DNA of 5,172 bases from a virus (taxonomy: Duplodnaviria > Heunggongvirae > Uroviricota > Caudoviricetes). Both the position numbers and the translations under genes were made by a program. Within the stretch, counting starts at the first letter, position 1, and every line of letters begins with the position of its first letter. Below the pieces are notes generated by a model. That model was given only the letters and a program-made list of their open reading frames with translations. It was not told the origin of the DNA and searched no databases. Below are positions 943 to 5,172 of this stretch, one piece after another. The stretch lies in IMG/VR virus record IMGVR_UViG_3300001919_000214; one strand, 5' to 3'.

Positions 943-1281
943 CTATTTCCCTGAATTTACGACGAAACTGTTCGAGCGGGCTGAAGCACTCATGCTCATA
1001 GCCTTCACGGAGGTAGATAACCCGTTGTGTTTCCGGCTCCCAACGAATGACTCTGACGGGCACTCCGTAGTGATCTTTGAACCAGCGGTTAACTTGTCGC
1101 AAAGGACTGTCTCCTTCTGCCGGTTGAAATCACCCACAGCCCACTCTGCAAAGCTGTGGGTTACAATTTCCCTGTCACCTGGTACATTCACTGCATAGCA
1201 ATACTCCACCTTCGCTTTTCCACCCGGTACAGGAAGTGCAATCAGTTGCGAACGACGGTAGTGTGTTGTTAAACTGTTCAT
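943..1281 (-). CDS. Hypothetical small protein (112 aa), third gene of the cro operon; possibly YmfM-like (e14 prophage) by position and length only
   Basis: ORF with ATG at 1281 overlapping the upstream stop as ATGA (1278-1281); GGAG lies 10 nt upstream. Stop at 943-945 sits 9 nt before the initiator ATG. No recognisable motif in the translation. Confidence 0.55.
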
Positions 1282-1940
1282 GCGTTAGTTTCTCCACAAC
1301 CAGAAGCAATCGACGCCACGACGCCCGGAGCTGCACACTCGCGGGCGTTACTCTTTTCCGGCGCACAAAAAACACGAAATAACAGTGTTAAATGCTCCTG
1401 CCACTTCGCCATTACCTGGTAGCTGTTCTCTTCGATTTGCTCACGCTCAGCTTGGTCAATAACTCCATCAGCAGTTGCCTTGCGTAAGTACTGAGAATGC
1501 TTGCCAATCCATTCTATTGACTCCATCAGCCGCTGATTAATGTCACCATTGTCAATGTCATCAATGACCACCAGCGGCACAAACACCCCATTACTACGAC
1601 GGGCTATTGCATCTGTTACATGCCTGGTACCACTGGCATCCTGTAAAACCATGGCCCACTCAAGTGGAAAAATTTGATCCCCACCGCTACGCAGTCTGTT
1701 ATGCAATTGATCTTTTGCTGGGGTGATATCATCAGATTTATACAAACCAAGAATTTCTGCTGCTTCCTCATAGCCATGAGGTAAATCAGCAATCGTTCTT
1801 CGTATTGCTGCCACCAGCCATGCTGGTTGTTTATCAACTTTCCATTCAGGTTCTTTACCCACGGTTAATTCCTCATTTCTGTGGTTACGTTTACGCAGCT
1901 GAACCGCTAACTTTTGAATAGCACTCAGGTAATCCATCAT
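1278..1940 (-). CDS. Hypothetical regulatory protein in the CII/YdaT/YmfL position downstream of cro (221 aa from ATG 1940)
   Basis: Long minus-strand ORF with stop at 1278-1280. Start is ambiguous: ATG at 1973 (83-bp overlap with cro), ATG-ATG at 1940/1937 (47-bp overlap, no SD), or GTG at 1862 with GAGGAA 8 nt upstream (194 aa, no overlap). Functional call rests on synteny alone. Confidence 0.55.
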
Positions 1941-2154
1941 TTGGATTGGGGTAAATATCAGGACGCAGTTCATGAGGGGTCACGGACCAGTTTCCCAACT
2001 CACAAAGTTGTAAAACCCGTTCTGACGGGACTTGATTGTTAATTACCCAATTAGCGACGGATTGAGTGGACTTAAAACCAAAGCGACGGGCTACTTCAGA
2101 TAAAGATTTTCCCGCAGCCTTTACTGCTTTCTCTGTGTAGTTTTGAGATGACAT
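1891..2154 (-). CDS. cro: Cro-like HTH regulator (YdaS/Cro family), 87 aa
   Basis: ATG at 2154 with AGGAG 6 nt upstream. Translation contains SLSEVARRFGFKSTQSVANWVINNQVPSERVLQLCELGNWSVTPHELRPDIYP, the pattern I associate with YdaS-type Cro proteins. Divergent from the CI-like gene. Confidence 0.8.
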   Translation of the reverse strand: MSSQNYTEKAVKAAGKSLSEVARRFGFKSTQSVANWVINNQVPSERVLQLCELGNWSVTPHELRPDIYPNPNDGLPECYSKVSGSAA

Positions 2155-2306
2155 ACCTTTCTCCTCTGAAATTCAGAGGGATGATGCTACTTAAAATAGC
2201 AANNNNNNNNNNNNNNNNNNNNNNNNNNNNNNNNNNNNNNNNNNNNNNNNTGCAACTACTTAAAATAGAAATGACTAGTGTATGTGATGTGAGTAATCTT
2301 CTACCT
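2155..2306. promoter_or_regulatory. Divergent cI/cro switch region with candidate operators; 48 nt masked by N
   Basis: 17-bp perfect palindrome CCTCTGAA-A-TTCAGAGG at 2163-2179, adjacent to the cro SD. 13-bp direct repeat CTACTTAAAATAG at 2187-2199 and 2256-2268 flanks the N-run. Promoter hexamers cannot be read because of masking. Confidence 0.5.
2203..2250. other. Run of 48 N (masked or unsequenced) in the cI/cro intergenic region
   Basis: Directly visible. Confidence 1.
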
Positions 2307-3011
2307 ATGGTAGAAGAACAGAAGTATCCAGATTTCGCCAAGAGACTAAACGAGCTAATGACAAACAAGGGAATTTCTGTCACCCAACTCAAAAGTCTTG
2401 TGGGCGTTACATATGAAATGGCGCGGCGATACACAATCGGCGCTGCGAAGCCTCGTGCCTCTGTCATGAATAAACTTGCATTGGCTCTGGGGGTATCAGC
2501 TTCATATTTAGAATATGGTGTTGGCGAGAGAGAAGGATGTAAGGAAATGGCAAGCATCCCCAATCCAACGAAACCCGATGTATACAGGATAGAAGTTTTG
2601 GATCTTAGCGTTAGCGCAGGACCTGGGACCTATATGCTTTCAGACTATGTTGATGTGCTCTACGCCATTGAGTTCACAACAGAACATGCCCGTTCTCTTT
2701 TCGGCAACCGTTCTCAGAATGATATTAAGGTTATGACTGTAAATGGCGATAGTATGTCCCCTACACTCGTTTCCGGAGACCGACTGTTTGTCGACATTTC
2801 TGTTCGTCACTTCCAGACTGATGGAGTTTACTCTTTCGTTTACGGTAAGACTTTTCATGTCAAACGTCTTCAAATGCAAGGTGACAAGCTAGCCGTTCTT
2901 TCGGATAACCCCGCCTATGAGAAATGGTACATCGATGAAAAATCGCAGGATCAGCTTTATGTAATGGGCAAGGCGTTGATTCACGAATCTATAAAATACA
3001 ACCGATTGTAA
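2307..3011 (+). CDS. cI: CI-type prophage repressor: N-terminal XRE-family HTH plus C-terminal LexA/S24 autopeptidase domain (234 aa)
   Basis: HTH region FAKRLNELMTNKGISVTQLKSLVGVTYEMARRY; probable Ala-Gly cleavage site in VSAGPG; catalytic Ser in GDSMSPTL and Lys in FHVKRLQ, arranged as in LexA, lambda CI and P22 C2. Stop TAA at 3009-3011. In-frame ATG at 2271 is an alternative start; neither has a strong SD. Confidence 0.9.
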   Translation: MVEEQKYPDFAKRLNELMTNKGISVTQLKSLVGVTYEMARRYTIGAAKPRASVMNKLALALGVSASYLEYGVGEREGCKEMASIPNPTKPDVYRIEVLDLSVSAGPGTYMLSDYVDVLYAIEFTTEHARSLFGNRSQNDIKVMTVNGDSMSPTLVSGDRLFVDISVRHFQTDGVYSFVYGKTFHVKRLQMQGDKLAVLSDNPAYEKWYIDEKSQDQLYVMGKALIHESIKYNRL

Positions 3012-3055: not shown

Positions 3056-3454
3056 ATGAAATCTGAACTATTTCATAGCGAAGCAAATTCAGAAATTATC
3101 ACTGCAGATGAGTTTATTGATTTCATAAACTCTTTCAAAAAGCCTTTAATTTGCCAAATTTGCGGAAATCAATCATGGAGTGTAGTCGGTACTCTAGAAC
3201 TTGAAGTTGAAGACAATCAGCCAAAACATCACGTAATNNNNNNNNNNNNNNNNNNNNNNNNNNNNNNNNNNNNNNNNNNNNNNNNNNNNNNNNNNNNNNN
3301 NNNNNNNNNNNNNNNNNNNNTAAATTATCCTGGTGGTATGCCGCTGTTTCGAATCACCTGTGATCACTGTGCACATGTACTTCTTTTTTCTTATAAAAAA
3401 GCTAGATCATTGATCCAAAAAAGAAAAAATGAAAAAGAAGAGGATGGGAAATGA
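3056..3454 (+). CDS. Hypothetical small protein with two CxxC pairs (zinc-ribbon-like), 132 aa if continuous across the N-run
   Basis: ATG at 3056 with AGGA 8 nt upstream. CQICGN before the gap and CDHCAH after it lie in the same frame, supporting one protein. Basic C-terminal tail. Continuity across the 83 masked bases cannot be verified. AT-rich. Confidence 0.5.
   Translation: MKSELFHSEANSEIITADEFIDFINSFKKPLICQICGNQSWSVVGTLELEVEDNQPKHHVXXXXXXXXXXXXXXXXXXXXXXXXXXXXXNYPGGMPLFRITCDHCAHVLLFSYKKARSLIQKRKNEKEEDGK
3238..3320. other. Run of 83 N inside the putative zinc-ribbon gene
   Basis: Directly visible. Confidence 1.
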
Positions 3455-4083
3455 CGCGACCTTATCTCAGAGCAGTACCAAACTGTGGATCTGGTATTGA
3501 TAAGTGTGACCTTTACCCCAATGTTAAGAACAGGCTGCGCGTCGGTATAGAAGAAATGTATACTGATTTTATCGAATCCGCAGATGAAACTTACAAAACT
3601 GATGGGGGAAATAAAATGTCATCAGTTAGTCGAGAAGAAATTCAAGCACTTTTAGCTGCCAATAAAGCAGAAATGGAGTCCATTGCATCCTCTATTAGAG
3701 TTGAAATGGCTTTATCTCGCGAGAACACAAACGTTCAGCTAGCATCTCTAAATTCAGCCATCAATTCTATCTCTTCGAAAATCGAAGGCAAAATGGACAG
3801 TGTTGACGGGGATGTGAAGGCCATCAATGGTAGATTCGAAGGTATACAAGGCCAAATTACTGGAATAAATACAGCCATTAGTGGTATTCAATCTGGAATT
3901 TCTACCAGACTTGCTATTTTTGGAGTTATCATTGCGGTCATAGTTGCATTACCTAGCATAATTTCTGCTTTTAAAGATACTTCGCCAGTAGTTCAACCAG
4001 TTACACAACAATCAAGTGTTAAACATCTCAACCAAGAACCAATTACTCCACAAGTATTACCTCCGCAGGGAAAAGCAAACTAA
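3451..4083 (+). CDS. Hypothetical coiled-coil protein with a single C-terminal transmembrane helix (210 aa; alternative internal start at 3616 gives 155 aa)
   Basis: ATG at 3451 overlaps the upstream stop as ATGA, with GAGGA 6 nt upstream. Internal ATG at 3616 has GGGGGAA 5 nt upstream. Heptad-like Ile/Ser/Gly-rich segment, hydrophobic stretch LAIFGVIIAVIVALPSIISAF, then a Pro/Gln-rich tail. Architecture is reminiscent of XhlA-like or exclusion-type membrane proteins; this is low-confidence pattern matching. Confidence 0.65.
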   Translation: MTRPYLRAVPNCGSGIDKCDLYPNVKNRLRVGIEEMYTDFIESADETYKTDGGNKMSSVSREEIQALLAANKAEMESIASSIRVEMALSRENTNVQLASLNSAINSISSKIEGKMDSVDGDVKAINGRFEGIQGQITGINTAISGIQSGISTRLAIFGVIIAVIVALPSIISAFKDTSPVVQPVTQQSSVKHLNQEPITPQVLPPQGKAN

Positions 4084-4106
4084 ACCGGCTTTATGCCGGT
4101 TTTTTT
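4083..4106 (+). terminator. Rho-independent terminator closing the cI-linked operon
   Basis: Stem AACCGGC (4083-4089) pairs with GCCGGTT (4095-4101) around loop TTTAT; T-run continues to 4106, immediately after the stop at 4081-4083. Confidence 0.7.
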
Positions 4107-4198: not shown

Positions 4199-4251
4199 NN
4201 NNNNNNNNNNNNNNNNNNNNNNNNNNNNNNNNNNNNNNNNNNNNNNNNNNN
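4199..4251. other. Run of 53 N in the intergenic region after the terminator
   Basis: Directly visible. Confidence 1.
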
Positions 4252-4421
4252 ATTATCTACTTTTAGTTGTTGATTTTTGCTACTTTTGGTAGCAGAATTA
4301 TTTTAACGACAACGAACAGGCAGGACGCCCACGAAGTAGCCGCCTGGGGCATATGAAGTCCAGGATGATTCGTTGAGTCATGTTGTGCCACCAGGCACTC
4401 ATGTTAAAGCAGGTGTATGAA

Positions 4422-4697
4422 ATGAAAGTCCAGATTTTAAACAATAACTGTGAAGTCGTTTGGTCATACGACATAGCCGCCCCTGTAGATCAGAGCGGCG
4501 ATAGCTGGACCAATGGGAAACATCAGATTATGGCTGGAGTTGTGTTCTCTTTACGCCGTGCTTTGGAACAGGCTGAAGTATTTCCATCAGACCCTGAATG
4601 GAAATGGCCTTTTTCTATTTGTCCAAATTCGGAGAGCACATTTCAGAAAATTGGTCAGAAAGTCGCACTCGAAGAGCATCAGCCAACTGTTTCCTGA
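4422..4697 (+). CDS. Hypothetical protein (91 aa from ATG 4422; the ORF extends in frame to ATG 4380)
   Basis: AGGTG lies 6 nt upstream of ATG 4422. Codon pattern looks coding. No recognisable motif; not Arg-rich, so not an N-type antiterminator. Its last 83 bp overlap the convergent minus-strand ORF. Confidence 0.4.
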   Translation: MKVQILNNNCEVVWSYDIAAPVDQSGDSWTNGKHQIMAGVVFSLRRALEQAEVFPSDPEWKWPFSICPNSESTFQKIGQKVALEEHQPTVS

Positions 4698-4860
4698 TTT
4701 TTTCAGGTAACTCGTCGGCATCGCAGAAACAACAACGCTCGATCATGTTGAAAGCCGATTCGTAGAACTGTTTCCGCTGAGTGTCGCTGAGACAGGAAAA
4801 GAGCGACGTTACGATGATTTTATTAATTGCATTATCAAGTTCTTTTTCATCAAAAGTCAT
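4615..4860 (-). CDS. Hypothetical small acidic, Cys-containing protein (81 aa)
   Basis: ATG at 4860 with AGGA 7 nt upstream. Contains CCFC and a further Cys; no HTH seen. Overlaps the plus-strand ORF at its 3' end. Confidence 0.5.
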   Translation of the reverse strand: MTFDEKELDNAINKIIVTSLFSCLSDTQRKQFYESAFNMIERCCFCDADELPEKIRKQLADALRVRLSDQFSEMCSPNLDK

Positions 4861-5113
4861 TTGATTTTCCTTTTATGTATACGGGCTTAAAAGGATACCA
4901 CCGAGCCTGAAGTGGTGAAAAGACAGGCACATAACAGCTAAGTATTTTCAACCAGAGAGAATCCTTAGCGTTGTGGTGAATGCGGCTCAGCGCACGCGGG
5001 TTAAGGTTGAGGCTGACAGTCGACCTTCTGTGGATACCCACCCGTCTGGTGTGCAACCTTCGCCAGGCACCGGGAGGCACCCGGCACCACAACTTTATGC
5101 TGTGTGTAGTCCT
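4861..5113. other. GC-rich, hairpin-rich stretch with no credible ORF; candidate structured RNA or long structured leader
   Basis: The only ORF here (4850-5092, minus) gives an Arg-rich, low-complexity translation typical of noncoding GC-rich DNA. Several short inverted repeats are present (for example ACCAC/GTGGT around 4898-4917). Strand and function are undetermined. Confidence 0.3.
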
Positions 5114-5160
5114 GGCGGTACCAGTTTGTACACTTGCTTCCGGCTGGTACCGTCCTTTTT
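5114..5160 (+). terminator. Terminator-like hairpin with T-run on the plus strand
   Basis: 11-bp stem (5114-5124 with 5144-5154, one G-U pair), 19-nt loop, then TTTTT at 5156-5160. On the minus strand the same hairpin is preceded by A5, so it is not a minus-strand terminator. Confidence 0.55.
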
Positions 5161-5172
5161 ACAAAACAGAGA

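Follow-up and report, generated by a model that had tools for sequence, protein, structure and literature searches.

The window, a 5,172-nucleotide stretch of Caudoviricetes DNA (IMG/VR record IMGVR_UViG_3300001919_000214), carries two small convergent ORFs whose 3' ends overlap, and comparison across enterobacterial lineages indicates that both are very probably genes. The two form a compact cassette at the start of the pL operon, close to its promoter, in SfV/e14/CPS-53-like lambdoid phages and prophages. We regard the pair as an uncharacterised case of the known convergent, antisense-coupled pairs of prophage early regions, which calls for no new principle; that it works as an excludon-like pair, switching between the prophage and the induced state, is a proposition that we hold to be evenly poised, the timing of expression, the interference and the roles of the proteins being what we infer. 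What makes the pair interesting is how deeply it is conserved, how rigid its geometry is and how close it lies to the promoter. The cassette would be the first to be transcribed from the left early promoter in a widespread group of enterobacterial prophages; its carriers include the Shigella serotype-converting phage SfV and K-12-related cryptic prophages.

The window comes from a lambdoid prophage of the SfV/e14/CPS-53 type and spans its immunity and early region (Table 1). Masked runs of N at 2203-2250, 3238-3320 and 4199-4250 fall in the right operator region, in the 132-aa ORF and immediately upstream of the left operators, so that these features are not fully readable. A pL function is assigned to 4257..4299 because of its place downstream of the repressor operon terminator; one of its two repeats sits within the palindrome GCTAC-TTTTG-GTAGC, and related CTACTTAAAATAG sites flank the masked run by the cro-like and repressor genes (2190-2270). 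Every gene downstream of the pair (yfdP, yfdQ, yfdR, yfdS and so on; in SfV, as far as xis and int) has the plus orientation; within about 5 kb only the minus gene opposes them. A stretch of 921 bases around the pair is found at an identity of at least 98% in many E. coli chromosomes.

Table 1. Positions of the features discussed (window numbering)
Feature	Position	Strand	Remarks
CII-like gene	1278-1973	-	faces the CI-like repressor gene
Cro/YdaS-like gene	1891-2154	-	faces the CI-like repressor gene
CI-like repressor gene	2148-3011	+	
Two passenger genes	3056-3454 and 3451-4083	+	3' of the repressor gene
Strong bidirectional terminator (predicted)	4082-4102		after the passenger genes
Putative left operator/promoter (pL) region	4257..4299	+	two CTACTTTT.G.. 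repeats (direct repeat family D1)
Structured RNA of about 70 nt (predicted)	4304..4378	+	in the pL leader of the plus gene; RNAalifold, covariance model R1
Plus gene, 91 aa (MKVQILNN...)	4422..4697	+	PGAP CDS WP_072277834; SfV orf33; PHROG 3195
Minus gene, 81 aa (MTFDEKELDNAINK...)	4615..4860	-	convergent with the plus gene; PHROG 3311
Tail-to-tail ORF overlap, 83 bp	4615..4697		
Hairpin S3 (predicted)	4869..4894	-	minus-gene Shine-Dalgarno sequence (AAAAGG, 4874-4869) pairs with CCTTTT (4894-4889)
Interleaved inverted repeats S1 and S2	4897..4928	-	S1 GCCTG 4928-4924/CAGGC 4909-4905; S2 ACCAC 4916-4912/GTGGT 4901-4897
STnc100-like sRNA gene	4940..5162	+	neighbour 3' of the pair, outside it; Rfam RF02076

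Several neighbouring features were noted in passing. In lambda, rexA and rexB are co-oriented with the repressor gene and directly 3' of it, and the two passenger genes of the window, which SfV lacks, are placed alike; they may be prophage-expressed exclusion genes. The 132-aa passenger protein is Cys-rich (PHROG 4293), and the 210-aa passenger protein is a coiled-coil protein with a C-terminal hydrophobic segment (PHROG 5820) and weak similarity to MakE and PbeC. Tandem iteron-like repeats (GTCAGATTTTGAYG...) at about 555-635, within the minus-strand replication (O-like) gene, presumably mark the phage origin; an Rfam match to mir-5880 there is spurious and is caused by the repeats. The STnc100-like element scores 41.2 bits (E=1.3e-6) against RF02076, below the gathering score of 47, and so is not a certified member of that family; it possibly belongs to the PasD/STnc100 group (bioRxiv 10.64898/2026.05.13.724894). 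PGAP places a frameshifted pseudogene ('frameshifted hypothetical protein') over 4940-5162, and in K-12 the homologous e14 stretch is labelled ymfH; both are probably ORF calls overlying an RNA gene.

Coding status of the facing ORFs

An earlier note on this DNA had described ORFs at 4380..4697 (plus strand) and 4860..4615 (minus strand), overlapping tail to tail, and had suspected that one of them might be spurious. Both are present as described, with one correction: the stop of the plus ORF at 4697 stands, and its start moves to the conserved ATG at 4422, where PGAP also begins the gene. The 14 codons from 4380 are unconserved in other lineages and form a lineage-specific extension. Each ORF has, as had been claimed, a Shine-Dalgarno sequence of its own: AGGTG at 4409-4413, 9-13 nt 5' of the plus ATG, and AAGGA at 4872-4868, 7 nt 5' of the minus ATG. 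Spurious ORFs of 55-65 aa also occur in the same stretch, so that a bare ORF is weak evidence and comparison across lineages is needed.

The coding test drew on seven divergent lineages whose alignment is gap-free across the 439 bp that run from one ATG to the other (module positions below are counted over this interval); the comparative set, taken from Escherichia/Shigella, Salmonella, Klebsiella and Yersinia, comprises no more than about 10 lineages that are independent. In the stretch that belongs to the plus gene alone (module 1-192) the minimum numbers of changes by codon phase are 47/29/74, highest at the third position of the plus frame (chi-square p=3.5e-5); in the stretch that belongs to the minus gene alone (module 277-438) they are 33/76/25, highest at the third position of the minus frame (p=4.8e-8). 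Mean pN/pS is 0.33 for the plus frame over its unique part (codons 1-64), with zero stops, and 0.27 for the minus frame over its own, with zero stops in any lineage; the other frames give values of 0.37-1.7 and 11-49 stops, and the proposed frame is the lowest in each unique part. Among E. coli sequences most of the common polymorphisms are synonymous in the frame concerned, polymorphism within this species alone being too sparse and singleton-rich to settle coding status.

Both ORFs are thus conserved in related elements, and the suspicion of a spurious ORF falls away for each of them. Annotation is divided: PGAP and the authors of the SfV sequence call the plus ORF only, the record of phage vB_EcoM-720R4 annotates the minus gene, and gene callers at other loci choose one or the other. 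This disagreement might be taken to mean that a single gene is real and that the second ORF is an antisense shadow, held open by the real gene's constraints; such a reading is most improbable, given that each ORF has a non-overlapping part of 160-190 nt in which variation falls on the third positions of its own frame, pN/pS is lowest and stops are absent, and that ATG and Shine-Dalgarno sequence are conserved for each. Since standard pipelines annotate one member only, the other is systematically absent from genome records.

Profile searches place both products in existing families over their full length, the plus protein in PHROG 3195 (E=3.8e-65, residues 1-91) and the minus protein in PHROG 3311 (E=6.7e-55, residues 1-81). 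Protein searches returned homologues of the plus protein at 50-68% identity, including ones in Salmonella; those of the minus protein come from Salmonella, Klebsiella and Yersinia and share 55-64% identity with it. Among 1.84 billion proteins, a full HMMER profile search with the plus family yielded no more than 19 representatives, all of that same family. Distant homologues of the minus protein are 27-29% identical to that of the window, with hhalign probabilities of 96.6-97.9%; they lack the CCxC motif, for which reason a metal site at this motif was rejected.

Overlap and geometry of the cassette

In all loci compared, the plus gene comes first after the repressor gene or repressor operon. 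This holds whether the repressor is of the S24-peptidase CI type or of a short HTH type, and whatever lies 3' of the pair, be it yfdP-type genes, kilR-gam or exonuclease VIII. From this position the plus gene is read as the first early-left (pL) gene. The spacing from ATG to ATG is exactly 439 bp in all 263 of the loci fetched; every locus retrieved by means of one protein has the other ORF on the opposite strand, so that loci with one ORF all have its partner. Four distant relatives of the plus gene preserve the arrangement: in L266 it faces a minus-family ORF and overlaps it by 137 bp; in L267 and L268 the module measures 436 bp and the overlap 140 bp; in L269, again with a facing minus-family ORF, the module measures 439 bp. 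That relatives at 27-29% identity keep the facing ORF argues that both are genes and that the convergent overlap is ancestral to the family. Physical overlap by itself enforces co-inheritance, however, and linkage is therefore no proof of functional coupling.

The 439-bp core occurs in 551 of 5,426 complete E. coli genomes (about 10%) and in the viable phages SfV, vB_EcoM-720R4 and SKA5. It travels as a block among differing repressors and differing downstream genes.

The overlap itself is less rigid. The plus stop moves, giving proteins of 91 aa in the window, 93 aa in one lineage of Salmonella and 108, 122 or 126 aa in others; across lineages the overlap measures between 74 and 176 bp. Where the plus frame is extended (module 277-366), its tail has a pN/pS of 1.31 as against 0.25 for the minus frame. 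In module 241-276 (window 4662-4697) variation tracks the minus frame; in module 194-240 (window 4615-4661) it is equal at all three codon phases, and no indel is found there. On this pattern, the overlap is mostly an unselected C-terminal tail of the plus gene that runs into the constrained 3' part of the minus gene, with no doubly constrained coding segment. We therefore do not retain the 83-bp overlap as a functional unit, the 3' tail of the plus gene being unselected and its stop free to drift; the coding overlap would be a by-product of the plus frame continuing into the minus gene as far as a chance stop.

The earlier note was right that transcription of one gene must cross the other in antisense, and the extent of this is greater than the 83 bp it had in view. 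With every downstream gene as far as xis and int on the plus strand, pL transcription would run antisense through the entire minus gene, so that the antisense relation is one of the whole minus gene to the early-left operon. Mutual antisense control, which had been put forward on the basis of the overlap, may reasonably be supposed on this layout.

Structured elements in the two leaders

No terminator is predicted between the plus and minus genes. For minus-strand transcription the nearest terminator-like sites lie at 4332-4320 (weak) and 4102-4082 (strong and bidirectional); a weak AU-rich hairpin that corresponds to 4848-4880 was marked by the authors of the SfV sequence. On the other side, the conserved block extends to about 65 nt upstream of the minus ATG, and this short leader contains two predicted elements.

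The first is hairpin S3, which would close the Shine-Dalgarno sequence of the minus gene. Its pairing is kept in every lineage with differing sequence: CCTTC/GAAGG, TCCTTCT/AGAAGGA, TCTTGGT/ACCAAGA, CCTTG/CAAGG, TCCTTAC/GTAAGGA and ATTACCTCA/TGAGGTAAT; and S3 lies within the minimum-free-energy fold of eight of nine leaders. These changes suggest that translation of the minus gene is additionally gated by an SD-closing hairpin.

The second comprises the interleaved inverted repeats S1 and S2, whose pairings are preserved by changes on both sides in L003 (GCCTT/AAGGC and ACCGC/GCGGT) and in Yersinia (GCCGGG/CCCGGC). An identical copy of S1/S2 lies upstream of the unrelated gene ymfI in prophage e14. 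The repeats could form an H-type pseudoknot, with a 3-nt loop 1 and an A-rich 7-nt loop 3 if read on the plus strand. The strongest promoter-like candidate for the minus gene overlaps them: -35 TTTTCA at 4921-4916, an 18-nt spacer, and -10 TATCCT at 4897-4892, preceded by TG. This sigma-70-like site is top-scoring and constant in position in eight of nine lineages. S1/S2 could thus act as an RNA structure or as a promoter. The candidate promoter would start transcription inside the S3 loop, which contradicts S3 as part of the mRNA. The parts available of the supplements to the K-12 Cappable-seq paper list no transcription start sites for the S1/S2 element upstream of ymfI.

A further structured RNA is predicted in the pL leader of the plus gene. 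RNAalifold gives 15 pairs, seven of them with compensatory changes; the outer helix ACGAA/TTCGT becomes GTCATC/GATGAC or AGCGAA/TTCGCT elsewhere, and the inner hairpin covaries too. Covariance model R1 scores 93 bits at 4304-4378, 69.7 in the K-12 e14 pL leader (L012 6184-6109, between ymfK/cohE and ymfJ) and 89 in Yersinia, where the element lies downstream of the gene pair, not upstream; besides the window and L012, it is placed at L176 3926-3853. The element is separable from the cassette, for it is missing from the leaders of L003, L176 and L179. It matches no Rfam family. The SfV/e14-like phages considered here have no N-like gene; no boxA or boxB was seen, and the architecture of the element differs from that of nut. 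It shares short motifs with putL and putR of HK022 (CGAAC.GGC ... C.GGATGA). The covariance model gives no match in HK022, however, so that the element was rejected as a homologue of HK022 put and a put-like antiterminator role is only a lead.

Products, mechanism and counterparts

The two proteins are small, acidic (pI 4.7-5.6) and hydrophilic (GRAVY -0.38 and -0.41), and no hydrophobic segment was found in either. The earlier note had recognised neither of them, and remote-homology searches leave it so: they led only to PHROG 3195 and PHROG 3311, both of unknown function. For either protein Pfam, NCBIfam and PADLOC yielded nothing but noise at E up to 0.1-1, and profile searches of the PDB brought no meaningful match. 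Two scans of species-representative genomes returned nothing; the SfV literature contains nothing on orf33. AlphaFold2 predicts four helices for the minus protein (pLDDT 75.7), with only generic fold matches; the structure model of the plus protein is unreliable. Both products would be cytoplasmic and most likely bind or modulate host or phage proteins. The promoter-proximal place of its gene makes the plus protein a candidate early host-takeover or anti-defence factor.

The mechanism that we favour, without putting it above an even chance, is an excludon-like one. In the prophage, with pL repressed, small amounts of the minus protein would be produced from a gene that lies head-on inside the pL operon and has its own ribosome-binding site and structured leader, its translation gated by the RBS-closing hairpin; the minus-strand transcript would run antisense into the plus gene, towards pL. 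On loss of the CI-like repressor the plus gene would be transcribed first, and each pL transcript that reaches the later genes would be antisense to the complete minus mRNA. Upon induction or infection, then, collision of polymerases and duplex RNA would silence the minus gene while the plus protein is made, and expression of the two would be mutually exclusive, as in an excludon. Excludons are convergent or divergent genes whose transcripts overlap and which shut out each other's expression. As with excludons, the genes are convergent with no predicted terminator between them, and they would serve opposite programmes, those of the repressed prophage and of the induced phage; unlike in excludons, the coding regions themselves overlap, and one partner lies wholly inside a long operon.

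A close counterpart of the arrangement is the e14 pair ymfJ/ymfI (K-12 b1144/b1143), which is convergent with a 63-bp overlap, ymfJ being first after a CI-like repressor gene and ymfI facing it. Its flanks are those of the window pair: the same pL-leader RNA on one side, then the same S1/S2 and STnc100-like region on the other. YmfJ and YmfI are larger (102 and 113 aa), and comparison with the window proteins by blastp gave nothing and by hhalign a probability of 0.3%; nor was homology to YdaF, YdaG or SieB of Rac detected for either window protein. Judged by flanks and sequence, the e14 pair is an alternative cassette in the same slot and no homologue. In Rac, sieB faces ydaF and the pL-proximal small genes beside the repressor, with a minimal 3' overlap of 4 bp. 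SieB is a superinfection-exclusion protein made in lysogens, and so offers a precedent for a prophage-expressed gene at such a position; unlike the 81-aa soluble, acidic minus protein it is a membrane protein of 162 aa. Nothing supports SieB or another known exclusion or defence protein as an identity for the window proteins, there being no PADLOC, Pfam or NCBIfam match and no evident similarity to K-12 SieB. The recurrence of the head-on design in this slot with unrelated genes, in e14 and in Rac, suggests that the arrangement itself is kept. Both ymfJ/ymfI and Rac ydaF/sieB are listed in the K-12 core 'excludome' drawn from 58 transcriptomes (PMC12288877), and in the SOS response e14 ymfJ is a late-induced gene (PMC11002266).

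Two further comparisons concern lambdoid regulation. The plus gene occupies the place of lambda N, first downstream of pL, and its product is of similar size (N has about 90-110 aa); unlike N it is acidic (pI 4.95) and has no arginine-rich motif. With its N-terminus (MKVQILNNNCEVVW), that pI and no match to the Pfam N family, it was rejected as a lambdoid N antiterminator. In lambda OOP RNA/cII and P22 sar/ant, an early regulatory gene is overlapped in its 3' part by a convergent transcript that controls it through antisense pairing. The partners there are short non-coding RNAs, whereas here the partner is a conserved protein gene.

The most serious competitor of the excludon-like reading, which we think unlikely but by some way the best of the alternatives, is that two unrelated genes are packed together without a spacer, each with its own signals and timing, their antisense relation having no regulatory effect. 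The behaviour of the overlap is what such packing would give: the plus tail within it is free of selection and differs in length between lineages, and in module 194-240 each of the three codon phases varies freely. In K-12, convergent genes with short 3' overlaps are common, with 165 convergent pairs (PMC12288877). Simple packing does not, on the other hand, alter the fact that pL transcription cannot avoid the whole minus gene, nor does it account for the recurrence of the convergent design beside the repressor with unrelated genes, in e14 (between the same flanks) and in Rac.

It is considerably less likely that the proteins are partners, as toxin and antidote or as effector and inhibitor, with antisense transcription as a second layer of control; the early plus protein might, for example, harm or reprogram the host, and the other, made by the prophage, neutralise its leaky expression. 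Both proteins are under purifying selection in every lineage and neither is ever found alone, the geometry is rigid and free of indels, the cassette moves as a block between repressors and downstream genes, and small acidic proteins often bind other proteins. Against this, linkage is trivially explained by physical overlap, no toxin, antitoxin or defence model matches either protein, neither is hydrophobic or basic, and the ORFs are disrupted separately in some E. coli prophages with no sign that a single loss is lethal. The layout, too, argues against partnership, being convergent, unlike type II toxin-antitoxin systems, and having a protein-coding antisense partner, unlike type I. The earlier note had named a toxin and its regulator as an example of the module these genes might form; for this we find no support, since the proteins are acidic, soluble and non-hydrophobic, match no Pfam, NCBIfam, PADLOC or PDB family, and lie in a layout unlike either type. 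A type I system was rejected for want of a small hydrophobic toxin, both proteins having a negative GRAVY and a pI of 4.7-5.0, and because the antisense partner is a protein gene under purifying selection; a type II system, because the genes are convergent rather than co-directional and match no toxin or antitoxin family in Pfam, NCBIfam or PADLOC.

A bolder version of the excludon-like reading would make the cassette a self-contained developmental switch of an undescribed kind, in which two antagonistic small proteins, one made by the prophage and one on induction, act on the same host or phage target and are kept exclusive by head-on transcription and by gating in the leader. We give this slightly less credence still than the partnership of the proteins; were it true, e14 ymfJ/ymfI would be a second, convergently evolved instance of the design. 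As a clean and deeply conserved case of protein genes lying head-on inside an operon, the pair offers a tractable model of transcriptional interference in the lysis-lysogeny decision.

A separate observation concerns the domain context of the plus protein. In P0064 and P0065 (L266 3001-3579) its domain forms the C-terminal half of a protein of 192-198 aa. The N-terminal part of these longer proteins (MEFKDLP...) resembles the product of a separate 66-aa gene (MKFQDLP...), which in L003 lies directly downstream of the pair (4572-4772). This hints at a functional link between the plus protein and the MKFQDLP... protein.
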